Part shown: one piece after another, positions 27,632 to 47,583 of the stretch
How the letters are laid out: each line of letters starts with the position of its first letter
How positions within the stretch are numbered: the first letter of the stretch is position 1
Source of the DNA: Phyllosticta citribraziliensis
Lineage: Eukaryota
NCBI RefSeq assembly: GCF_038025025.1
Contig: NW_027117354.1
Location: 186,001 to 250,000, forward strand
Reading direction: 5' to 3'
Length of the DNA: 64,000 bases
Made by a program: the position numbers and the translations under genes
Notes under the pieces: model-generated
Databases searched by the model: none
What the model saw: the letters and a program-made list of their open reading frames with translations, nothing else
Told to the model about the DNA's origin: nothing

Positions 27632-29761
27632 TCACAAAGACATGATCAACCAACTCAACTCTTCTCCTCTCAACCCCTCAGCTGCATGCTCATTCAGCGC
27701 CGTATGGATCGCTCTCTTCTCCCACGAAGGCAGTTTATCGTTGCGCCAGAGCGCTGGGTAATCCGTATGCCGCACTCTTGCCCCACTCTGCAGCAAGAAC
27801 CTGACGAGATCGAGTGCTAGGTTTTGTCTTGAGCACGCTACGGAGAGTGGCGATTGGCCGCTTGCGCTAACGGTGTTGATATCTGCGCCGTGCTCTGCCA
27901 ATGCACGGATTAGAGCGATTGTGTCGTCAATCGAGTTGGCCGTCTGACACGCCTTCAGAATCAACGACTCTTTCGTCTTGGTCGACACATTAACGTCGGC
28001 GCCGTGCTTGATCAGTGCTTCCACGACGGCCACGTTGGGCTTCTCCAGTGCGAGGTGCAACGGTCGTTCGTCTTGAGCCGTCTCTGCTTCGGCATCTGCC
28101 CCCGCTTCAACCAAGGCTTCGACGACGCCGCTGTGAGAGTTCTTGACGGCGAGGTGGAGTGGTCGATTTTGGTTGTCCGCTGCTGCTTCTACGTTGGCGC
28201 CGGATGCGACCAGATTCTGAACGACCTGTGTGTGTCCTTGGCTTGCTGCGTGGTGCAACGGCGTCCACATTTGACTCGAGGGCGCTTCGATATCGGCTCC
28301 TGCACCAACAAGCAGCGGGACAAGCAGAGAATGACCAAACTTGGCGGCGTAATGCAGCGGTCTCATACCCGCAGCGTCCGGAGCATTCTTGTACGCTCCA
28401 GCTTCGAGTAGCGCCCGGACAGCTTTTGTTTGGCCGTGTTGACAGGCTAGATGGAGTGGCGTCTGGTTGTTTTTGTTGGCAGCATCTATCGCTCGCCCGC
28501 TTCTCACAAGAGACCAGACTGCATGTTCGTCTCCTCCCGTCGCGGCGCAGTGGAGTGGTATCGAGCCGCTGTCATCTTTAATCAGGGGATCCGCACCAAG
28601 CGATATCAGCAGCTCAATACATTCATTGCTGACACAGCAGTGCAGTGGCGTCTTTCCGGCGTCCGCTTTAGCATTGACGTTTGATCCAAGCGACACAAGT
28701 GTCCTGACGACGTCGAGATGGTTTGCCTCTACGGCCAGATGCAAGGGCGTGACTTCGGGTCTGCGCAAAGACTCAAATCGCCGCTTTGGAAGCGCTGTCC
28801 AGGACTTGATTGACGGGGACGAATCCTTTCGGTACCTGCTGTTGACATCTGTCCCTGATCCAGCAAGTCGAATCACTTCCGCGGAATCTCCTCGTTGTGC
28901 CGCATCGCAAATCTCCTTGGGAAACGTTGATCGTCGTCTTGAAAGCTTCCAAATTGACCGCTTTCCATCCGATTTTATCGAAGATCCGCTCGAGTTGGCC
29001 GAGCTTGAAGAAGCGAGCGATAATCCAGCCGTTGATGCTCTGGCGTCTGAGCTTGTCGTCCTTGAATGTCGTGTACTGTTTTGTGGAGATCGTTGGAACA
29101 CCGCTCGATATGCGCTGGAATCGATGACTTCGTTATCGAATCCGAATCGCGGCGAGTCCAAGGGCGATAGTTCATCTGCCGATTCCCCAAAGACAGTCGT
29201 GCTTTGTCGTATCGACGGAGTGTAAACTGATGCCTGGTCTTGGGCTTTCCTGAGTGTTGTTCGGTTCTCCAAATTCTCCAAAAGCACGCGCTGCTGGGTT
29301 TGCGACTTGCTGCATCAGCCGTTAGGCATGAAAGACTGACTGAAAGGTCCGACTTACAGGAGAATGACATTCAAAAGAATTCCAAGCGCAGCAGTCTGAC
29401 TGTCCAAACTCTGCTGGTGCATGAGGAACTGGCCCTCGTCCCAGATGAAACGGATCTTGCCCCCCAGCCAACCAGACTTGACGCGGAGGACATGGCTTTC
29501 GACCTCACGCACGACAATCTCACACGATTCGATGGCCGTCCTGAGATCCGTCACGACTTGTGGTGAGATGTTCTGATCCGAGTGCAACCATGACTGAAGC
29601 TGCGATATCGTCGCCCTTATGGTCCCCAGACGCGCCAGAATCAACGAGACTTGCTTGTCGGTGTGTTTTGCCTTGGCGATGATTTCATTCAACTCTCGAG
29701 ACGTTCGAACAATGGCAGTCAAGCAGGCGCCAGTGACCGAAATCACGGATGCGGGGTCCAT
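27632..29761 (-). CDS. HeLo-like (Helo_like_N/SesA-type) N-terminal domain plus ankyrin-repeat protein
   Basis: MDPASVISVTGACL...L..I...ISQLQSWL...L...IESC..V...KIRFIWDE...SLDSQTAALGILL. Intron 29310-29357 joins in frame (L|KSQTQQRVLLENL). A Ser-rich linker precedes about 11 ankyrin repeats (TPLHLA, TPLHCC, PLHCAA, RPLHYAA, TPLHHAA, RPLHLA). Confidence 0.88.
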
Positions 29762-30165: not shown

Positions 30166-31923
30166 TCAAGTCCGCCTCCTCGCAAGGATTGGAACTGGAC
30201 CCCACGGTTGTTGAACTCCAAATCCGAATGTTCGCCAGTTCATCTGCATTGCTTCCCGACTCGCAAGCACTTGAATGTCAAAGTCACGCACAATAATGGC
30301 GCATGTCAGCAGTAACTGCTTCTTTGCCAAATGACGCCCCGGACACATGGACTCTCCGCCACCAAAGGGGATCCACGACCCCGCAAGAGATGGGCCCAGC
30401 TGAAATTGTGGCCCGTGCCGCTTCTCCGCTTGGTCGTTTGGCGCTGTTCGCTTGGTGGGTCCGCTGAATGGTTCGCCAGGGGAGACCAGAAACCTCTCGG
30501 CCCAGAAAGTGTCCAATGGATGCGCTTTGAGATAACCCTCGTTCCATACGGCTGGATCTCTGTGGGCTGGGGTGGATGAGATGAAAATAGTACTACCCTC
30601 TGGCACATGCCAGTCCTGGGTCGTGAGGCTGGCACCTCCACTTGACCGGCTAATGTACGTGTTGACGCGCAATCGCAGCGTTTCGGCAAAGATGGACTGC
30701 AGAAGAGGCTGGCGAACAAGCCTTTGCGTGTCAAAGCCTGATGCCGAGTCGCTTTGACAAACTGCAACCTCGTCACGCACGCGTTGCAGAAGGTCGCGAT
30801 CCCGAAAGATTTCGAGAATCGACCAAAATATGGCCAAGACAATGTTGTGGTTGAAACTGAGACGTCAGTTGGTTGGCGGTGTTTGACATTGGTAGACTTA
30901 CCCCCAAAGCGCAGCAAAGTCTTGTGCTGCAATCGCGTCGTGGTCGTAATTGTCCACTTGCAGCATTTCTTGGTGTCTCTCCCGGAAGAACTTGCAGCCC
31001 CACACCCTGTCCGTTTCCCCGTCGGCGGAGACGTCAGACTCTGTCCAAGACTCCCGTGCAATTCGATGCCACTCCTTGACAGATGCAAAGAGAGAGTCTC
31101 GAAGCGCGTGTGCCCTTGGGTTCATGAATCTTGGAAGACCCTTAGACATCCACGGGAGGCAGGAACTGTAGTCCCAGAATTTTTGAGCGAACCCGGGGTC
31201 GACAGAGAGAAGAATCGGGCCTGCCATCGTGTCCAGACAAGCATTTGTGACGTCAATCTTGAACCACTGCAAAAAGTCGTCGACGGCTGTCCATTTCTCG
31301 TTTACGTTGAGTTCTAGGATGCGATTGGACAGATTCTGTTCGAATCGTTGAACCAATGGTCCAAGTCCAGGACCAGTGAGTAGTTTGGCCAGTCCCCGGT
31401 GAGTGATGAAGTTGATTCGATTGTGGGGCTCAGTCGTGCTGGTTTCGCTCGGCTGAGGCGCGATCCCCGAGTCATCCACCACGTACATGTTGCTGGCCTT
31501 TGCTGGCATGGCGAAGAATTTGCGCAGCACAAAAATAAAGGTGGCGCTTGAAGACGATGAGGAGGACTGCTTCAAGACCTTTTTGATGTTTTCCACTCCT
31601 TGGATGAGAAAGATCTTTTGCGTAAAGAGGTTGACGCGGACGGGGTGTTGTTTGCCATCGTGCTCGCTGCGGAGGTCAGCTCGATTCCCGAATTTGCAAA
31701 AAGAAACTTACACAGCATCTGACACAAACTTTACTGGGTCCCACAAGAAAGAGAAACAGTTCCCAAGAAATGGAGTGATGTATGGCACTGTAGGTGGTAC
31801 CCGGGCCTTCTTCGAAGCTTTCAAAGCATACTGAAAGGCTAACCAAGTCACGGCATACTGCACTTGGAAGGGTATTGAGAGAAGAAAAAGAAAGCCGCAG
31901 ATGTCGCGAATGGTAACCGACAT
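30166..31923 (-). CDS. Cytochrome P450, CYP7/CYP8-like group (sterol 7-alpha-hydroxylase / prostacyclin synthase-like)
   Basis: N-terminal anchor then PPTVPYITPFLGN; ETLR (ExxR); FWAERF; heme motif FGGGESMCPGR; two introns. Confidence 0.93.
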
Positions 31924-33860: not shown

Positions 33861-35565
33861 ATGTCTTTCATCCTATTTGCCTCGCTCGGGGCGTTGGTGT
33901 ACGTCTTTGTGACGGCGTACCGCTCGCGAAAAGTGGTGAATGATTTGCGCAAGCAGGGCATGGTAAGTTGAAGCTCTGGTTGATGAAAAATGCTGACTTT
34001 CTAGCCAATGCCAACATTCAGTTGGTTGTCTGGCCACATGCTCGTCGTCAAGGAGAATCTGGAAAAGTTCCCAATCGATGCCGTCCACAACTACAGTTTC
34101 GCGCGCATGTCGCAGGCGTTTCGCAAGGACAAGATGTTCTATCTCGATTTTTGGCCAATCAGTACGCCATTCTTGGTCATTACCAACCCGTATACTGCCT
34201 CGCAAATCACGCAGAACGTGAGCGCGGAAAAGCCAGAGGCAGTGACGAGCGCTTTTGTGGCCATGACGGGCGGACCAAATTTGTTGTCCATGCCAGAACA
34301 ACAATGGAAGAGATGGCGCTCCATTTTTAGCCCTGGGTTCAGTCCGGCACACATGCTGTCGCAAGTTCCAAAAATTGTCGAGCACACTGCCCTCTTTTGC
34401 AAAGGGTTGCAGGGCCTTGCGCAGGACGGAAAGCTGTTCCAACTGGAGGAGGCGACTTTCCGATTGACGCTTGACGTTATTGGAGCCGTGTCTCTGTAAG
34501 GATCTTGGAATCTCTGGCGAAGAGGAGCTGACAGTCGACAGTGATGCACACTTCAACTACCAAACCAGCGAGAATGAGTTTGCCGAAAGACTCCGATCAA
34601 TAGTCGAGTGGACCTCGTTCGGTGGCGAAATCAATCCATTCAAGAGGTGGAATCCTCTCCGGCCGCTGGCAATCTGGTACAATGGTCGTTTCCTGGACAA
34701 GCTCATCCACGCCGAGCTCGATAGACGTTTTGCAGAGCGCAAGGCCGCACTGGAAAAGCCCACTGAGACGGGAGCAAAATCCGTCGCATCCCTGGCCCTC
34801 GACAATTACATCAAGGACCATGTCAGTGCCGAAACCGAGTCGATTGATCCAACGTTCAAGTTGTACGCGACGGCGCAGATTCGCATGTTTTTGGTGGCAG
34901 GACACGACACAACTAGCAGCGCCATCACCTACGCCTTTCACCTGCTGTACACCAATCCGACAGCCCTCGCAAGCATCAGATCAGAGCACGATACGGTCCT
35001 CGGCGCTGATCCAGAAGTTGCGGGCGAGATGCTCTCTCAAGATCCTGGACTTTTGAACCAGCTTCCGTACACAGTTGCAGTCATTAAAGAGGTACTTCGT
35101 CTGTTCCCTCCGGCTGGCGGAATTCGAATGGGATCCTCCGATATTGTTTTGAGCACCGAGGATGGAAACCGTTACCCCACTGCGAATTGCAGTGTCTGGA
35201 TACTCCATGGTGCCATACAGCGGGACCCAGACTACTGGCCTCGACCCGAGGAATTTCTTCCGGAGCGATGGCTGGTAGGTCCGGATCACGAACTCTACCC
35301 CCGAGTCAAAGGTGCATGGAGACCGTTCGAACTTGGCCCCAAGAATTGCATTGGACAGACGCTGGCAATGACGGAGATAAAGACAGTACTGGCCATGACG
35401 GTGCGGCAGTTTGACATGAAGCCTGCATACGACGAATGGGATCGTCTGCATCCTCATGCGGGCATCAAAGCAGCAAACGCAGAGCGAGCTTACCAGGTAG
35501 ATGGTGGCGGAGGTGGCCTGCACCCTGCAAACCGATATCCGTGCCGCGTAGCCTGTCGGGGTTGA
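33861..35565 (+). CDS. Cytochrome P450 (StcS/AflN-like family)
   Basis: N-terminal anchor, PMPTFSWLSGH, FYLDFWP, FLVAGHDTTS (I-helix), KEVLR, FLPERW, heme motif FELGPKNCIGQ; two introns. Confidence 0.94.
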
Positions 35566-35973
35566 GTGGGGGCGATGTTGGTTTTGGCCCCAGGCAGGGG
35601 ATGTTGGCCCCCATGATGCACGTCTCTTGCATTTTGTATTGGAGTTGCACTAATTCGGCGTCTAAAATACTCCAATCATGTCGCAGTCGATCCCGTCCGT
35701 CTTTCTCTTGAGATATTTGTTGATAATGCAAGCCTTGGGCCCTGAGATGGGATTCTGGAAACATCCTGTTAGGCTCTGGACAGACCTTCGATAAGATGAT
35801 AAGCGTGGGTCCAAGGAAAAAAGGCAGCAATCGCCAGCACGTTGGCCACCTGTTTCAACATGAATGGCCCAATTCTGTAGGCAGCGATGGTGTCACACGC
35901 TGAATCCGAATAGAAATGCCTCCATCCACGACTTGGGAGGGTAACACGACTTGTTCTGAATCACCAATTCATC

Positions 35974-38218
35974 ATGGCCGGCCTCCCAGACTGGTTCGTC
36001 ACCAAGAATGCGAGGACTCCGAAAGACCTCGAGAATGAAAAGCCTCGTCTGTCAATTTTGAACCTCCAACGAAAGTCCAAGAAGGACGACGAAGCAAGCC
36101 CATCCCTGGAGTTCGGAGACGGATGTGAATATGCAGTCTCGCAGTATCTGTACGAAGAAGCGTACGATACGGTGGCGTCGACTTTCGTTCGCGATGCGCA
36201 AAATCATTTGCAGGCAAGCAAAGGCAGCATCCTTCTCAGCTCCAAGATGAAGGGCGGCATGGAGTTTCTCGACTCTTTTATCCATCATCTTGCCAAGGAT
36301 CTCGAGTCCAGCTTGATCATCATCGAATTGGAAGATCTCGTCGACTTGGGGTGGGAATTAGATCAGCGCGAGAACAGCTCCCTGGGATGGACCCTGGAGG
36401 AATCGACACTCGAATTTCCAGATCGTCAAATACCGTTCGGACCGGCATACCATTACTTTGCTGGCCGCAGTCATCGCAGAGCATCTAGCGAGTCTTGGAA
36501 CCGGAACATGAGAGTGCTTTCCACCATTCTTGATTGTTCCAGGGCTGAGGACTCATCTCGAGCTCCAGTTATCGTCCAGGTGCGGGATACGAAACGTATG
36601 ATGGACGCAGACAGAGGTCCCAAGATTCTTGCCAGACTGAGAGACTGCGTGGAGAGAAAACGGCAGTCTGGCGAAACCATCACAATAGTTGCCACGTTGT
36701 CCCATCTTGGAGCGCCGGAGGATGATTGTGACTGTTGGATATGCGAAGGGGCAGAGTCGAGCAGTAGCTGCAGCTGTTCTTCCTGCAGTAGCTCCGGAAC
36801 ATACGGAAAGTTGAAGCGGAAGATTGGCGCAACAAGGGCATCAACAATAATCGTTGACGCTTCGGATGTCTCTCCTGCGGGCGGAAAAGACTTGGGAGGC
36901 TCCGTCTCTCGCGTGAATGTTCGACAACTGAAGCGCTTGCTGCGATTGAGGATCTCGAATTGCTTTGCTCTCAAGACTCTGCTTCCGGATGCAGACTGGG
37001 AGGAATTGGGCCTCGAATCCTTGGGAAACTCAATCTGGACAGAAGGGGAGATGGAGAGAGCAGTGGCCCGCATCAAAGGAAGAGCATGGAAAAAGCCTTT
37101 ACTGGACCTTGATGATGTTCGAGTCGTCTTGAAGCGTCTTGAGATGGTTCATGATCCTGAAAACGACGGCAATCGACCAGATGCTGAAAAGGGCGGAGGC
37201 GGAGGTCCTCTTGGGAAAAAGTGGAAACAAAAGCTCGAGGACATCAAATCCACCTGCAATGAACACGAAAAAGAGCTTATTGACGGTGTAGTCAAGCCAG
37301 GTATGTTGACTGACAAGAATGCTTTATGGCCGCTGACATTCTGCAGAGGATCTCCAGTCCAAGTTCGACGACGTCATCATTGACGAAGAAGTCAAAGAGA
37401 CGATCAAGTTTTTGACCTCCATGTTCAAATTCCGAGCCGAGACGACGTCGCATTTCCTCCTTTCCCAGATCCAGATAAAGGGCGCACTGTTGTACGGGCC
37501 ACCCGGGACGGGCAAAACGCACTTCAGTCGCGCGATTGCCAAGGAAAGCGGAGCAAGCATGCTTTCGATTGATGGATCCCAAGTCACGTCGATGTGGGTT
37601 GGTGAGACGGAAAAGTATATCAAGGCGGCCTTTACTCTCGCCACCAAGCTTGCTCCGTGCGTCTTGTTCATTGACGAGGCAGACTCTCTCTTCAGGCGCC
37701 GATTATCTGGAGACAAGTCTTGGGAGCGCGGTTCAATCACCCAGTTCCTGACACTGATGGACAGTGTCAAACAAAAGCCAAAAGGAGACGCCCCTTTCGT
37801 GTTGGTCGCAACGAACAGGCCAATGGACTTGGACGACGCGTTTCTACGTCGCCTGCCCCAAAAGGCAATGATAGGATTGCCCTCGCAAGAGTCCAGGTCC
37901 AAGATATTGCGGTTGTTTCTGAAACGGGACGACTTGGATCCGGAGACCAATATTGACAGTATCGCCGAGCAGACTGACGGATACTCGGGATCAGATCTAC
38001 GCAGCCTTTGTGCTGAGGCAGCCTTGCTGTGGGCTATTGAGCAACAACAAACCAAGGACAGAGGACAAGAGAGCCCTGTCAAGGTTAAGCTGACCAAGTC
38101 CCATTTTGACCGAGCACTGGAAAGCATACGGCCGACAGTCTCCAAACAGTCGCTGAGAGAGCTGGAGGAGTTTGATCGACGCTTCAGCGCAAAAGCCCGC
38201 AAGGTGAGGCCGAATTAA
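35974..38218 (+). CDS. AAA+ ATPase of the Msp1/spastin (meiotic) clade; probably the N-terminal half of an AAA-HET fusion
   Basis: Intron 37301-37346; Walker A GPPGTGKT, pore loop SMWVGE, Walker B VLFIDE, ATNRPMDLDDAFLRRLP, GYSGSDL. The stop at 38216-38218 lies inside a predicted 47-nt intron. Confidence 0.9.
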
Positions 38219-38244
38219 GCTCCATCTCTTTCCAGTGCTGATGA

Positions 38245-40662
38245 ATGCAGTCAAAGCAGACCAAGGCGGAAAATACGCAGCCGGAAAACACGCAGCCTGA
38301 GAAAAACTCCCCCGAGGATGAAAGCGTCGCTATTGAGACCAGGACCGAACTGGTCTTGAAAGCTGTCAACGAGACGTCCCACGGTCCATCTCTGCCTCAT
38401 TCGGTCGCCGAATGCGTCGAATTCGTCTACGAGCCTCTGGAGACGACACAATTTCGCGTTTTGAAGATTCATCCGGGAGCCAAGGGGGCGCCTCTTGAAG
38501 CCGACTTGGTTCATGCGTCATTGACGGATGCTCCACAGTACCAAGCATTGTCGTACACGTGGGGATCTCTGGAGCCACCATTCTATATGAGTTGCAATGG
38601 TATCGAAATGCGAGTCACCAAGAGCCTGTATGACGCGCTCTGCAACGCTCGCAAAGAAGACGAGACTCTGACCATCTGGGCCGACGCTGTTTGCATAAAC
38701 CAGAAGGACGTTGCTGAGAAGTCGGTACAAGTTGCTCTGATGCGTGAGATTTACAGCAAAGCGGATAGCCTGTTCATTTGGGTCGGACAGCCTAAGGATC
38801 CCGACGATGCGACTTTGGTCTCGGACACTTTTGATCACCTGGAATCTCTGTTACTCCAGGCTCTGGACGCTGATGTTTGGCGTATCAAAGACTGCCTCTC
38901 TGATGAGATGAAGGATTACCTTGCGTTCATGATGACCGAAAAATTTGGTTGCAGCCCGAAAGAGCGTCTGGAATTCCTCAAACCATCCCAGTGGACGGTT
39001 TTTTTCCAATTTTTCCTCATGCCTTGGTTCACCCGGGTCTGGATCTACCAGGAAGTGACCTCCATTCGAAAGACGGCCGAGAAAAACATAACACTGGCTT
39101 ACGGCAACGCAAAACTATCTTGGGCCAAATTTGCTGTCGTAACCAGAGGCTTGATTTGCTTTTGGTTGGACATAGCTTTGGACTTGGCTGAGGTCCCGAG
39201 AGACAAATTCCCGATGAAGATCATCGAAATGATTGAGCTGGAGCGGACAACGCAATGGATAAACCTTCAGCTCCCGGACGAAACTCTCAGCGAGGAGAAG
39301 CTTCTCGAAATTATTGAATGCGCAGCATCCACCAATCTTCGCCCGATCATTATCGCCGAATATGACATGGAAGCATACAGAAAAATCCCGAACCTGGAGG
39401 CAGAAAAGTCCTGGCTCAAAAACACCACGCACGGCGTGTCCGAGCGATGCAAATCTTTCGGTTTTCGGATTCCTCCGATCATTTTAAAGTATCGAAACTT
39501 TATCCGCGGGAGGAAGACGAATGGTTCGGCGTCTGGAAGACTCTTTAAGCATCTTGATTTGTCTCGTCGACTTTCCAGCACCGATGCGCGGGACAAACTC
39601 TTCGCGTTTTGCGGCCTTCTTCACGACGAGATTGAAAGCGAGTCGAACCAAAAGCTAGCGCCAAATTACAGGAAATCGGTGGCGGATGTTTTCATCGATC
39701 TGACCTTGTACTTTGTGCAGGAGGAGCTTTGTCTCGACATTTTCGAGCTTCTTCCGGACCAAGTCGAGATTCCCGAGACTCTCAAGATTGAAGGTCTTCC
39801 TACTTGGACCGTTGACTTGACACAAGCGCCAAAAGCCGAGCTTATGATGCCTTCGGCGTCAATTTCTACCGATGGCAGTAACGACCGCGGACTTTCATCG
39901 TACGCGCTGGGTGTTGGTGTTTCTGCAGATCGACGCCAGCTTGGGCTGAGTGTGTATGCCTTGTGTCAAATACAGGGGCTAGTACCGCCAGCACCAGAGA
40001 CGCCCATTCCGTACAAAGAGCACCTACAAAGCTTGCGCGAGATGCCGAACTTTGTGCAAGTCGAAGGTGAAGACATTGTCAACGATCCACTCGTTTGGGC
40101 CAAGGAAGCAACATATGTTAGTGGTGGTTCCGTATATGAAGCATTCTGGCGCACTGCTGCAGGCAGCGCTCTCGCTTGGGGACCTGCTGGCGACGAGGAC
40201 TCCGAGTTTGTCTGGCGGACGTTTTTTGAAGGTTGGCACAAACGAATGTGGAATACACTGCATCATAGCGACGATGGCAGTGACGCTGACAGTATCTGTG
40301 AGAAGCATCCAGAGCTGAGTTTCGAAGAGCGGCATTGGCAACTTGAAGGCTCAAAGCCTTTTTCTGCGCATCGACAGTACTGCACCACGAGGCGCGGATT
40401 CATGGGCTGGGTGCCACAGCGCGCAAGAGTTAGGGACACCGTCTGCATCATCCCAGGCGCGCGAATGCCGTACTTGATCAGACCGACGGAAGTGGGGGAG
40501 CATTGGGAACTCGTTGGCCCTGCGTATATACACGGCGTGATGGAGGGCCTCTTCGATTCGGAACGGAACCGAACTGTACTCTCGCCAATACTCCCGACAC
40601 TCTCGACCAAGGGCGAGGAGCTTCTTAGCCCTGACTCAGTTTTGAACATTTGCCTAGTTTAG
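38245..40662 (+). CDS. Heterokaryon incompatibility HET-domain protein (HET-6-like); probably the C-terminal exon of an AAA-HET fusion
   Basis: YQALSYTWG, IWADAVCINQ.D..EK..QV.LM.EIYS.A, PWFTRVWIYQEV, STDARDKLFA, LPTW, C-terminal TRRGFMGWVP...DTVCII.GARMPYLIRP...LVGPAYIHGVMEG. Confidence 0.93.
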   Translation: MQSKQTKAENTQPENTQPEKNSPEDESVAIETRTELVLKAVNETSHGPSLPHSVAECVEFVYEPLETTQFRVLKIHPGAKGAPLEADLVHASLTDAPQYQALSYTWGSLEPPFYMSCNGIEMRVTKSLYDALCNARKEDETLTIWADAVCINQKDVAEKSVQVALMREIYSKADSLFIWVGQPKDPDDATLVSDTFDHLESLLLQALDADVWRIKDCLSDEMKDYLAFMMTEKFGCSPKERLEFLKPSQWTVFFQFFLMPWFTRVWIYQEVTSIRKTAEKNITLAYGNAKLSWAKFAVVTRGLICFWLDIALDLAEVPRDKFPMKIIEMIELERTTQWINLQLPDETLSEEKLLEIIECAASTNLRPIIIAEYDMEAYRKIPNLEAEKSWLKNTTHGVSERCKSFGFRIPPIILKYRNFIRGRKTNGSASGRLFKHLDLSRRLSSTDARDKLFAFCGLLHDEIESESNQKLAPNYRKSVADVFIDLTLYFVQEELCLDIFELLPDQVEIPETLKIEGLPTWTVDLTQAPKAELMMPSASISTDGSNDRGLSSYALGVGVSADRRQLGLSVYALCQIQGLVPPAPETPIPYKEHLQSLREMPNFVQVEGEDIVNDPLVWAKEATYVSGGSVYEAFWRTAAGSALAWGPAGDEDSEFVWRTFFEGWHKRMWNTLHHSDDGSDADSICEKHPELSFEERHWQLEGSKPFSAHRQYCTTRRGFMGWVPQRARVRDTVCIIPGARMPYLIRPTEVGEHWELVGPAYIHGVMEGLFDSERNRTVLSPILPTLSTKGEELLSPDSVLNICLV

Positions 40663-42086: not shown

Positions 42087-44626
42087 TTACGAAACAACAA
42101 TCTCGCCCTCGAGCCTCAAATCACGGCTACTAGCACCAACCCACAGCTTGTACGACCCCTTTTGCAACTCCCACTGCTGCTCCACAACGTTCCAAATGCT
42201 GAGGTCGCGTCTGCGCAGCTCAAAGACGGCAGTGGCCGACTCGCCGGGTGCAAGAGGTCCCACCTTGTCAAAACCGCGCAGCTGGCGCAAGGGAGCGTTG
42301 GGGATGCCAAGGTAGAGCTGGGCAACTTCAGCACCCGACGCGCCAGTGGTGCCATTGTTGGAAATGACGGCCGTAACGTTGTACAGCGTGTCCCAGAGCT
42401 GCGGGTGACCACCTTGGACGAGCGGGATGGAGGCATCGGGAAACGCAGAGACGCTGGTGTTGTCGGCGGACGACAGGTCCTCGATGTGCAGATTCGCATA
42501 CGAAAAGGTCGTGTAGCTGAGACCAAAGCCGAACTCGAAGCGCGGAGTGACGTTGAGCTTGGCATCAAAGGCGCGATAGTCAATGTAGAGGCCCTCGTCA
42601 AAGTCGGACTGCGGGAACCACTCGTCCGAGATGGTGTGATCGAGGAGGTTGCCATAGTCGGACTCTTGACGAGCAACCGTGTAGTGCAGCTTGCCAGAGG
42701 GAGAAGTGGCACCGTAGAGAACATCGACGAGCGAGTGCCCTGACTCTTGGCCTGGAGTGCCAGCGAAGATGACGGCGGTGACGTTTTCGTGGTCAATCCA
42801 GGGGTCGACGAGCCGGACACCGGCGCTGTGGATCACGACGACCGTGTTGGAGCAGTTCTTCGCGACATTCTTGACCAAGTTGTCGGAGAACTCGTCGACC
42901 AGAGAAGGTCTGTCGAACGACTCGGACGCGTAGGCGTTGATGAAGACCAAGCAGACTTGAGCAGTTGCCGAGACATGTGGCTGCTCACTCCAGAAATTCC
43001 AACGGACGATGCCGCCGTCCTCAATGACTTGGTCCTGGATCGCCTTGAACGGGCTGATGACGTACGGAGGGATGTTGCCTCCGCTGCCACCTCCAACAAT
43101 GAGCGTTCCGTTAAACGTGTTCCACCTGAAAGTAGAGTTAGTATCGGGACCAGGGCTTCAAACGAGGGTATTTCGAAGGCTTAAAACGCACAAATGGTTC
43201 ACTTCGTAGCCACCTCCATAGCGCGCTACGTTCTCCCAGGGTTCGGCTTTGATGTCGGCATCGTATCCGTAGATCGCGACAAACTGGGGGGCTTTCAGGG
43301 GCAGGGTGTTGTTAACATTTTTTACGAGAACGTGGCCGGCAGCACCAATCTCGCGAATAATCTTCTTGTGGTCTCTCTGCACATTGACAATAGGATGCTC
43401 TTCAGTGTCAGAAAAGACGCCGACATCCGGGTAGTCCTCCTGTTCGAGATAGTAGTAAGCAGCAAGTGTGCGGGTGACCATGTCGTCCAGGCGGTCGACG
43501 GCGACAGAGCTGTTGTTGACAGCTTGCGTCTGTAATACTGTCAGCACGTCTCTTGTTTGTCGAGATCATAGGACTTACAAGATTGGCTCCCCAGTAGGTA
43601 GACCCCAGGGGCATGACCACATCCAACCCAGCATTGGCGGACGCGATACCCGTGTGCTGGCCTTCCCAATCCGATACAACGAACCCCTCAAAATGCATCT
43701 CCGTCTTCAGGATGCCATTGAGAAGCTTCGAGTTCTGGCAGGCATACGAGTTGTTGGCCCTCTGGTACGAGCACATGACGCAGGCAGCGCCAGCTTTGAG
43801 CGCATCGTAAAAGGGGAAGGCGTAGAGCTCGTGAGCGGTCCGGTCATCCACATTCGCCGAAATGGCTTCTCCAATGGGGTCGTATGTCTGGTTTGGGCGG
43901 CGCCTCAACTCTTGCTCGTTGAAGAGAAAGTGCTACTGAATGTCAGTAATGCTCCGAAACTCAAAGCGAGGTAGTACCTTGGCCGTTGCAATTACACCGC
44001 TGCTTTGCATGCCAGTAGTGACTTGATACATGCCCCATCCCGCGAGGTACGGGTCCGAGCTCAGTCCTTCCCAATTGCGGCCTCCTTTGGCAATGCGACC
44101 AAGTGGCCCAGCAACAGGACCAAGAGCGACATTGATGCCTGTAATTACGTCAGAAGTGGGGGTGAAAGAGATGGATCGTCGTACCCTTGTCGTAATACTC
44201 CCTGCCAATTGCTTTTCCGTATGCCAGGAACAAGTCCTTGTCCCAGGTTGCGGCCAAATGGGACTGCGACGGAAAGGCAGAGACAAAGTCGCTGCCACGA
44301 ATACCATCAGGGGCATCCGCGAAGCACAATGGCTCAATGCCAAGACGAGGAACTGCTCCAGTGTTGCCGACGCATGCTCCTGTGTAGCCACCGGTGATGT
44401 TGACCTTTTCTTCCAACTCCAATTGCGCGAGAATCTCACGGGCTTTGGCGTAGGCGGCAGCCCATCTGGAAGAGGAGGTGCCGTTAGTCTGAGGAGAAGG
44501 GTAGACTGGCGGACTCTGCCCGTAGTAAGGCAGTTCTGAAGGATGGTTCGTCCAGGTGTAGTTCTGGGCAAAAGCTGGAGCACCAGCAGCCACTATCGAG
44601 GCCAAGTAAAGAGGAACGGACTTCAT
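42087..44626 (-). CDS. Secreted glycoside hydrolase family 3 beta-glucosidase
   Basis: Signal peptide [60 protein letters not shown] (nucleophile Asp), [21 protein letters not shown]-terminal Fn3-like LRGFDKV; four introns. Confidence 0.95.
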
Positions 44627-46071: not shown

Positions 46072-47309
46072 ATGGAGGGTCTCTACTACAATGTGCAGAA
46101 TGGGTAAGTCTCAGCCCGACCATGCAACACTTCAGCTGATTGCGAGACAGCTACATCGAGGGCATCGTACGCGGTTACCGCAACGCCCTTCTGACCGGCC
46201 AGAACTACGGAAACCTGACGCAGTGCGAGACCATCGACGGTATGCGCATCCATCCGTCATCTCCGCGAAGACGACTGACAACCTCTAGATGTGAAGCTTC
46301 AGCTCTCTCCGGCCTACGGCGACTTTCTCTCCGCTCTCCCTCCCAACCCGTCCACCTCCGCTTTGGCCAACAAAGCTACCGAGAAGCTAGTCTCCGAGTT
46401 CCGCTACCTGCAGTCCAACGCGACGGGCTCCCTCGCCAAGTTTATGGAGTACCTCACCTATGGATACATGATAGACAACGTCGCGTTGTTGATCACGGGC
46501 ACGCTGCACGAGCGCGACACTAGGGAGCTTCTGGAGCGGTGTCATCCCCTCGGCTGGTTCGAGACCATGCCAGTCCTGTGTGTCGCCACCAACATCGAGG
46601 AGCTGTACAACTCGGTCCTGATCGAAACTCCCCTGGCAGCCTACTTCAAGGGCTCGCTCAGCCACCAAGACCTGGACGAGCTCAACATTGAAATCATTCG
46701 CAACACGCTGTACAAGAACTACCTCGAGGACTTTCACAATTGGGTCAACACGGACGCAGAGATGAAGGGCAGCCCGACGGCCGAGGTCATGACGGAGGTG
46801 CTGGAATTCGAGGCCGACAGGAGAGCCATCAACATTACGCTCAACTCGTTCGGCACAGACCTGTCCAAGGCGGACCGCAAGAAGCTGTACCCCAGCTTTG
46901 GCCGGCTGTACCCCGAGGGTTCCCTCATGCTGTCCCGCGCCGATGACGTCGAGGGCGTTAGGATCGCAGTCGAGGGCATTTCGGACTACAAGACCTTTTT
47001 CGACCAAACAGGTCTCGGCGGCGGATCCGGTATTGGAAACATGGCTGGCGGCAGCGGTGGCGAGAGCAGGAGCCTGGAGGACATGTTCTATCAAAAGGAG
47101 ATGGAGATTTCGAAGTTGGCGTTTACGCGGCAATTCACGCATTCGGTCGTGTATGCGTGGGTGAAGCTCAAGGAGCAGGTAAGACAAGCATACTCTCATC
47201 CACGTCAGGAGCTAATCGCGCCCAGGAAATCCGCAACATCACTTGGATATCTGAGTGCATTGCGCAGAACCAGAAGGAGAGGATCGGCAACTACATTAGT
47301 GTGTTTTAA
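46072..47309 (+). CDS. vma6: V-type proton ATPase subunit d
   Basis: MEGLYYNVQNG|YIEGIVRGYRN..., YGYMIDNVALLITGTLHERD, CHPLGWF, EIIRNTLYKNYLEDF, FEADRRAINITLNSFGT, LKEQ|EIRNITWISECIAQNQKERIGNYISVF; introns 46104-46150, 46239-46288 and 47179-47225. Confidence 0.97.
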
Positions 47310-47583
47310 TCCTCGAGCGCTGGCCCGTCTTTTTGAATATCCTGTAGCATGCTTTTCAGGGCGTTTTGGGCTTGGTGTAAATATACGTTCTTGTCACGAC
47401 TTAAAACTGCTCGAGTCTACTGTCTTTGGTCCAATGAAGCCTGATGCCATGGAAATTTCGAGGATCTTGTCACGCCCACACGCCTGCCATGTAAAATGTG
47501 CCCCATGGGTATCAAGCTGAATGCAAGTTCAGCACGCCATCTCCGAGGCCATGCCTTTCAACTCCATAGCGAACGTCGCTCCC

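Follow-up and report, generated by a model that had tools for sequence, protein, structure and literature searches.

A probable three-exon AAA-HET fusion gene, split in the public annotation, in Phyllosticta citribraziliensis

Gene structure at positions 35974-40662

The DNA considered here is a window of 64,000 nucleotides (nt) from Phyllosticta citribraziliensis (NCBI RefSeq assembly GCF_038025025.1, contig NW_027117354.1, positions 186,001 to 250,000 of the forward strand), numbered from its first letter. Within it, positions 35974-40662 probably form a single gene, whose three exons encode a fusion protein of 1531 amino acids (aa) with a classical AAA ATPase in front and a HET cell-death domain behind. 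The features along the locus are as follows.

35974..37300, + strand: exon 1, the N-terminal 442 aa, an AAA+-fold domain without Walker A and B (a degenerate 'D1')
37301..37346, + strand: intron 1, 46 nt, phase 1, GTATGT...GCTGACATTCTGCAG
37347..38203, + strand: exon 2, an active-looking classical AAA ATPase module with large domain, lid and C-terminal helix
38204..38250, + strand: intron 2, 47 nt, phase 0, GTGAGG...GCTGATGAATGCAG
38251..38415, + strand: linker of about 55 residues, low in complexity, KAENTQPENTQPEKNSPEDES...
38539..39054, + strand: HET domain, the PF06985 match
39055..40662, + strand: HET-associated C-terminal region, ending in the stop codon (40660-40662)

The upstream ATPase exon ends in GCC CGC AAG at 38203 and is followed by the donor GTGAGGCCGAATTAAGCTCC... 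(GTGAGG from 38204), while the acceptor GCTGATGAATGCAG closes intron 2 at 38250 and TCA AAG resumes at 38251. The 3′ ends of this 47-nt interval and of intron 1 are closely alike in build. The interval encloses both the apparent stop of the ATPase (TAA, 38216-38218) and the apparent start of HET (ATG, 38245-38247), which lie 26 nt apart. An earlier note on this DNA had given the same spacing and the same AAG/GTGAGG and TCA AAG borders, and all of its positions were reproduced. The split in the public annotation is due to what the 47-nt intron contains: its donor is followed 4 codons on by a stop, and its acceptor is preceded by an ATG at a distance of 6 nt.

Exon 2 codons begin in frame at 37349, intron 1 being phase 1. 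Joined, exons 35974-37300, 37347-38203 and 38251-40662 come to 4596 nt and read as 1531 codons closed by a single stop; the 1531-aa frame of the earlier note was thereby recovered on recomputation. By conceptual translation, keeping intron 2 in gives a 732-aa product, and keeping intron 1 in closes the frame after 469 aa.

We would note that an open frame of this kind also arises by chance. With donors taken from 38000-38216, acceptors from 38218-38600 and intervals of 35-400 nt, 65 GT..AG pairs bridge both open reading frames (ORFs) in frame and free of stops, which counts against reading much into any one of them; an in-frame GT-AG pair was therefore rejected as significant by itself. The pair 38204/38250 is the shortest of the 65 candidates and the sole one with a GTGAG donor. 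Judged from sequence alone, the case for the 47-nt intron is weak.

Contigs, relatives and the public gene model

Three public runs (X1, X2 and X3), whose kind is not on record, cover the stretch as assembled contigs; such contigs retain the commonest path only, and ratios of forms, ends, strand or levels are not readable from them. X1 is from the same organism, with zero differences. Its 7647-nt contig spans 35900-38201 and resumes at 38249-38840, skipping 47 nt with GT..AG ends; moving the cut two places to the right gives exactly 38204-38250. The joint is flanked by at least 255 letters on each side, and no path other than the joined one is kept in this contig, whose mean word depth is 1221. 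X3, a relative of 90-95% identity, spans 35900-40008 with 274 substitutions and zero indels across the ATPase, both introns and most of HET, and therefore the two-intron layout appears to be kept in a sister lineage.

The second line of evidence comes from other fungi. Searching longer proteins with the HET ORF found Jackrogersella minutella F4804DRAFT_322811 (P0001), a 1579-aa protein composed of AAA, lid and HET, with which the three exons are collinear: exon 1 matches its residues 34-497 (27% identity, 8e-49), exon 2 residues 500-777 (57% identity, 3e-106) and the HET ORF residues 831-1571 (37% identity, 2e-148). The support for intron 1 is the junction match to this protein only, in which the spliced VVKP-E-DLQSKFDDVIID corresponds to IVSPETLEVTYDDIVID of P0001 or, in a shorter view, KP-E-DLQSKFDDVIID to SPETLEVTYDDIVID. 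Among the matches listed for P0001 residues 500-1100, 13 clusters carry both PF00004 and PF06985. Twelve were scanned, P0032 being left out as a near twin of P0031, and AAA is N-terminal to HET in every one (12/12), with a partial HET match in P0061 and P0066. The AAA-then-HET order that the earlier note had proposed to look for in fungal proteomes does recur. Eight of the clusters come from named species, of Jackrogersella, Colletotrichum (two), Fusarium (two), Paramyrothecium, Pestalotiopsis and Coleophoma, and the lineages looked up comprise one Leotiomycetes and one Sordariomycetes. Five further clusters come from metagenome or bulk-assembly sources. Gene callers for such data are not known to model introns; if they do not, these five AAA-HET proteins would be uninterrupted ORFs.

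The X1 contig, the collinearity with P0001 and the 12 AAA-first relatives together bear out the earlier note's central claim, that a 47-nt intron joins an AAA ATPase to HET, and we consider it likely that 35974-40662 is one gene with three exons.

A further feature bears on the nature of the runs and on the public gene model.

38839..38919, - strand: intron of an antisense transcript, 81 nt, AAG/GTAATC...TTCCAG/G, inside the HET coding region

At this interval, X1 and X2 each include two contigs, one of 56 nt that is joined and one of 137 nt that is not. The 81 nt read CT..AC on the + strand and form a well-formed intron on the minus strand, which points to a spliced antisense RNA running over HET. 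We took X1 and X2 as RNA because this two-form minus-strand GT..AG site recurs in both and in the public gene model, and that they contain RNA is very probable. A different view would have the X1 joint be a DNA allele lacking the 47 nt, or an assembly artefact, rather than RNA splicing. The kind of X1 is indeed not on record, and its contig is long, takes in several genes and keeps intron 1. Against this, an exact GT..AG gap in phase 0 with zero other differences would itself mark an intron and encode the fusion directly, and two forms at the 81-nt minus-strand interval are unexpected for haploid DNA. We regard such an allele or artefact as highly improbable. The joined X1 form favors the fusion either way: if RNA, it is a splice; if DNA, an intron would have been lost exactly and the fusion would be directly encoded.

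The window's HET ORF matches a protein from the Dothideomycete Phyllosticta. The public model of it (P0275) is a stand-alone HET protein of 778 aa that takes ATG 38245 as its start; it differs from the window's 805-aa ORF only in a 27-residue gap, which corresponds to the 81-nt antisense interval. The 27 absent residues (38842-38922) fall within the HET domain and are retained by homologues such as P0001. P0275 probably took up the antisense intron, which is CT..AC on the coding strand. The public model thus appears wrong twice, in splitting the gene and in removing 27 HET residues via an antisense intron. On the same antisense side, the ORFs at 37324-38214 (296 codons, opposite the whole AAA exon), 36474-37148, 40266-40658 and 39118-39483 match no Pfam family and are probably chance ORFs.

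Several observations weigh against a single fused gene. First, from the contigs: the 'RNA?' label on X1 is a tool's guess, with the kind of the record not given; the X1 contig retains intron 1 despite skipping intron 2, and extends 4753 nt upstream over other genes; the intron-1 joint is shown by no contig of X1 or X2; and the X2 contig over 38092-38840 is ungapped, with the 47 nt kept, at a depth of 14.6. Second, from annotation: the stand-alone P0275 just described, to which may be added the close HET relative P0127, also annotated as standing alone. Third, from the ATPase family: many ATPase relatives stop 1-7 residues past the AAA module (P0033, P0042, P0059 and P0068). Metagenome contigs scanned with P0067 gave 12 loci with the ATPase part only and HET in none of the 12, the flanks differing in length and P0067's own contig not being among them. 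When 49 AAA modules were placed in a quick maximum-likelihood tree, seven changes of the fused state were needed, at least five of them forced by well-supported branches.

The retention of intron 1 in the X1 contig has several possible causes, namely pre-mRNA, antisense reads or the choice of path in assembly.

The same facts are what one would cite for two independent genes as annotated, the joined RNA being a rare and functionless read-through: the public model of 778 aa begins at ATG 38245, X2 retains the 47 nt, and ATPase-only and HET-only relatives exist. However, the stop and the ATG are only 26 nt apart, the joined form is the sole path in the X1 contig, and the three-part layout, collinear with P0001, recurs in 12 more clusters (order checked in 11). 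In addition, the strand-inconsistent CT..AC gap weakens the public model as a witness. We therefore hold two independent genes to be improbable, and keep to the reading of one three-exon gene.

A third possibility accepts the fused gene and makes its splicing a switch, whereby retention of the 47 nt would yield a 732-aa ATPase without a death domain, removal would arm it with HET, and the antisense RNA may add control. It would account for X1 being joined and X2 unjoined, and for the intronic stop, which, 4 codons in, gives a clean 732-aa ATPase-only product whose end resembles the ATPase-only relatives with their tails of 1-7 aa; the spliced antisense RNA overlaps HET in both runs. On the other hand, contigs show the commonest path and no ratios, pre-mRNA or DNA might explain the unjoined X2 contig with its depth of 14.6, and the conditions of X1 and X2 are not on record. 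Intron retention is, moreover, a common background in fungi. We consider such a switch rather unlikely.

Whichever way the locus is used, fusion is not universal in the ATPase family, as judged by sequence. When the fused state was shuffled over the tree, the mean was 12.3 changes, and 0 of 500 shuffles came as low as seven. Either HET has been gained or lost repeatedly, or some of the 'ATPase-only' models are split genes like 35974-40662.

As a separate observation, both halves have their closest named relatives among Xylariales (Diatrype, Jackrogersella and Hypoxylon; 39-60% identity), as opposed to the Dothideomycete locus. Such relatives at a Phyllosticta locus could reflect patchy birth-and-death evolution or horizontal transfer.

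Domains of the predicted protein and neighbouring genes

Exon 1 matched no Pfam family. Its AlphaFold model has a predicted local distance difference test (pLDDT) score of 85.7 and a predicted template modelling (pTM) score of 0.82. Compared by VIA-align, the best 50 entries are all AAA+ ATPases and 80 chains reach a Z of at least 8, led by Rix7 (6mat, Z 11.8, root-mean-square deviation (rmsd) 3.1, 166 aligned), spastin (5z6q, Z 11.7) and PCH-2 (Z 11.4). Foldseek returned 70 matches at E≤1e-3, of which those inspected are AAA+-type ATPases. The position of the P-loop reads SSKMKGGM and that of Walker B reads PVIVQVRD. We read exon 1, from the predicted fold, as a degenerate and presumably non-catalytic AAA+ domain. 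This domain type is common to ATPase-only relatives of 870-1000 aa.

Exon 2, on the contrary, looks active. It matches Pfam AAA (PF00004; 4.4e-34, 118.2 bits vs a cut-off of 21.2), AAA_lid_3 (8e-11, 41.7 bits vs 27.2) and Vps4_C (2.9e-6, 27.6 bits vs 21.3, residues 244-279). In classical AAA proteins, the motifs of note are Walker A GPPGTGKT, Walker B DE, the sensor-1 Asn and the arginine pair. Here, G50-T57 (Walker A), D109 and E110, N156, and R167 and R168 are invariant across 13 aligned sequences. The earlier note's intact AAA+ motor is upheld in these motifs, and exon 2 is predicted to be an active ATPase.

Its sub-clade is less clear. The earlier note had placed it in the Msp1/spastin clade, of which the classical AAA assignment stands; the sub-clade rank is less certain, with Cdc48/p97, AFG2 and NVL/Rix7 scoring at least as high. 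In a sequence search of the PDB, exon 2 matched p97/Cdc48 at up to 1.5e-79 (sums over two domains) and AFG2 and Rix7 at e-60 to e-70, and p97/Cdc48, AFG2, NVL and Rix7 all ranked above Msp1 (5w0t, 6e-48, a single domain). The C-terminal 85 residues match AFG2, p97 D2 and fidgetin-like 1 of the PDB about equally. By BLAST, a plant protein named ATAD1 is 45.6% identical, compared with 33-38% for Cdc48-type proteins. The pointers to Msp1/spastin are only the Vps4_C match and the names of relatives, 'ATAD1' and 'related to MSP1'. Members of these families carry N-terminal parts of their own, such as the membrane anchor of Msp1 and the MIT domain of Vps4 and spastin. Its N-terminal part being different, the protein does not qualify as an orthologue of Msp1, spastin or Vps4.

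The downstream part is numbered here as the ORF counted from 38251 (803 aa). Its first 55 residues, the linker, have pLDDT below 50 in the model of the downstream ORF and are predicted to be disordered; the linker gave no alignment to P0001. The HET match (PF06985; 2.6e-28, 99.6 bits vs a cut-off of 22.5) covers residues 97-268 and profile positions 1-146 of 146. The blocks YQALSYTWG, WADAVCINQ and WFTRVWIYQE are present, and F260, W264 and E268 are invariant among 30 homologues. A passage of PMC9815663 speaks of a 'functionally relevant glutamate' within the conserved HET blocks, and we infer that E268, the Glu of W..QE, is the residue meant.

Pfam gives HET as the only family in the 803-aa part, with no WD40, ANK or TPR repeats, and finds no NACHT or NB-ARC in the protein, AAA_16 scoring 22 bits, below its cut-off of 32.6. 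The C-terminal region (39055..40662) matches no family in the Pfam copy used; it aligns with P0001 to residue 1571 and with stand-alone HET proteins, and for relatives a precomputed list gives PF26639. By VIA-align of the whole 803-aa model, the HET region resembles TIR domains weakly (Z 5.1-5.9, none at Z≥8), with the SARM1 TIR first (9hq0, Z 5.9, rmsd 3.4, 103 aligned) and MyD88 and TIR-1 at Z 5.2, and Foldseek of the same model against the PDB gave 0 matches at E≤1e-3. Such weak matches of a predicted structure are consistent with the published remote kinship of HET and TIR, and are no proof of it. A two-copy complex prediction of the HET domain (residues 56-335), run without controls, scored 0.00 vs a mark of 0.32.

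The neighbouring genes are the following.

27635-29314, - strand: ankyrin-repeat ORF, upstream of the locus
30169-30864, - strand: cytochrome P450 gene or piece, upstream of the locus
34005-35562, + strand: cytochrome P450 gene or piece, upstream of the locus
42090-43157, - strand: GH3
46279-47517, + strand: V-ATPase subunit d

Among the surrounding ORFs scanned, there is no immune-type neighbour, neither a NOD-like receptor (NLR) nor any other with NACHT or NB-ARC.

Proposed mode of action and known systems

How might such a protein work? In the scheme we propose, the exon 2 ATPase module would form an ATP-dependent ring, as classical AAA proteins do, and the ring would gather several HET domains, about six of them. 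Their clustering could then switch on a TIR-like cell-death activity, as in NLRs and TIR proteins, so that the AAA ring would stand in for the NACHT or NB-ARC of a fungal NLR. The trigger would likely be sensed by the N-terminal pseudo-ATPase domain or at the pore. This scheme is drawn by analogy and is offered tentatively; it is possible, and we would not call it probable. Of the functional ideas in the earlier note, the oligomerisation switch is hypothetical, and the integrated decoy, on which the data speak neither way, would be conjectural. The splicing switch considered above is compatible with ring-driven clustering, to which it might be added as a refinement of doubtful standing.

In this regard, Botryotinia calthae BOTCAL_0660g00010 (P0048, 1984 aa) is instructive. 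Its AAA module shares the tree clade of the window protein (a 98%-supported group of 32 rows), and the parts behind it are TPR_10/TPR_MalT plus a CHAT protease domain, not HET. This arrangement fits a motor that bears exchangeable death-type effectors. Taken further, the window protein could belong to a class of immune-type receptors in fungi that has gone unrecognised: a classical AAA ring, made of a pseudo-ATPase domain and an active module, would replace a STAND NTPase as the platform on which exchangeable death effectors assemble, and the 47-nt intron would act as a switch; this is speculative, and we think it unlikely. Within such a class, the effector would be HET here and TPR-CHAT in Botryotinia, and keeping or removing the intron would decide whether a 732-aa motor without HET or a 1531-aa one armed with it is made, which we find just as doubtful.

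HET ranks among the most abundant cell-death domains in filamentous fungi. If the proposal is true, HET on a classical AAA ring would be a second, non-NLR route to assembly-driven activation, and Walker mutants would offer a tractable test of clustering as the HET trigger. Some 'stand-alone' HET and 'ATPase-only' annotations would then be halves of one gene, skewing counts of the fungal immune repertoire. As for the literature, no paper describing the AAA-HET architecture was found in main texts, supplements aside; the sole 'AAA' of PMC4540973 belongs to a primer. The earlier note had known of no characterised example. That holds, insofar as no study was found; the layout itself, however, is not unique, being already predicted in public proteomes. 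The AAA-HET fusion is most likely real, predicted in databases and uncharacterised. On HET itself, three papers (PMC10197012, PMC9815663 and PMC12881547) report that it suffices to cause cell death and that it bears a remote likeness to TIR, including a conserved glutamate; the 2025 review among them (PMC12881547) lists its biochemical mode of action as not determined, and the 2023 review (PMC10197012) states that there is no recent evolutionary analysis of HET proteins.

The closest likeness is to the predicted AAA-HET proteins of Pezizomycotina. Such proteins, for example P0001, Fusarium poae FPOA_04028 (P0040, 1747 aa) and Coleophoma cylindrospora BP6252_13981 (P0079, 1613 aa), have their parts in the order of the window protein and share the ATPase motifs. 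Identity to the window protein is only 27-57%, however, and it is the window's public model that is split. The Colletotrichum members differ in having two Pfam-detectable AAA modules. Stand-alone HET proteins share the rear half. P0127 matches the HET domain and the C-terminal region, with a BLASTP identity of 39% across 92% of the query and one of 44% within the stretches matched by HMMER, but has no ATPase part.

With Msp1/ATAD1, spastin, Vps4 and Cdc48/p97, the window protein has in common the AAA large domain, the lid, the C-terminal helix, Walker A and B and the RR pair. Unlike in them, the AAA module is preceded by a degenerate AAA+ domain and followed by HET; Pfam finds no MIT or Cdc48-type N-domain in the window protein, and on reading the sequence there is no N-terminal hydrophobic anchor. 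SARM1 and other TIR proteins activated by ring or filament assembly are comparable through the HET region, whose model matches the TIR domains of SARM1, MyD88, TIR-1 and SpbK weakly (Z 5.1-5.9), and through the activation by clustering proposed here; SAM and ARM parts are absent from the window protein. The Botryotinia calthae protein, from the same AAA clade, has an NLR-like AAA-TPR-CHAT layout and so carries TPR-CHAT where the window protein has HET.

Finally, the HET-E, HET-D as well as HET-R proteins of Podospora, which are HET-NACHT-WD40 NLRs, resemble the window protein in that HET is coupled to an oligomerising NTPase, and, in the logic proposed here, in that assembly would activate HET. 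That assembly activates HET in such NLRs is the background given in PMC10197012, PMC9815663 and PMC12881547. The differences are nonetheless considerable. In the Podospora proteins, HET sits at the N-terminus, a STAND NACHT serves as the NTPase and WD40 senses the ligand, whereas in the window protein HET lies C-terminal to a classical AAA. By its Pfam matches, with no NACHT or NB-ARC and no repeats, the window protein belongs to the classical AAA family and to the HET family and is not an NLR. We propose, by analogy, that it may work like a HET-NLR with a different assembly engine.

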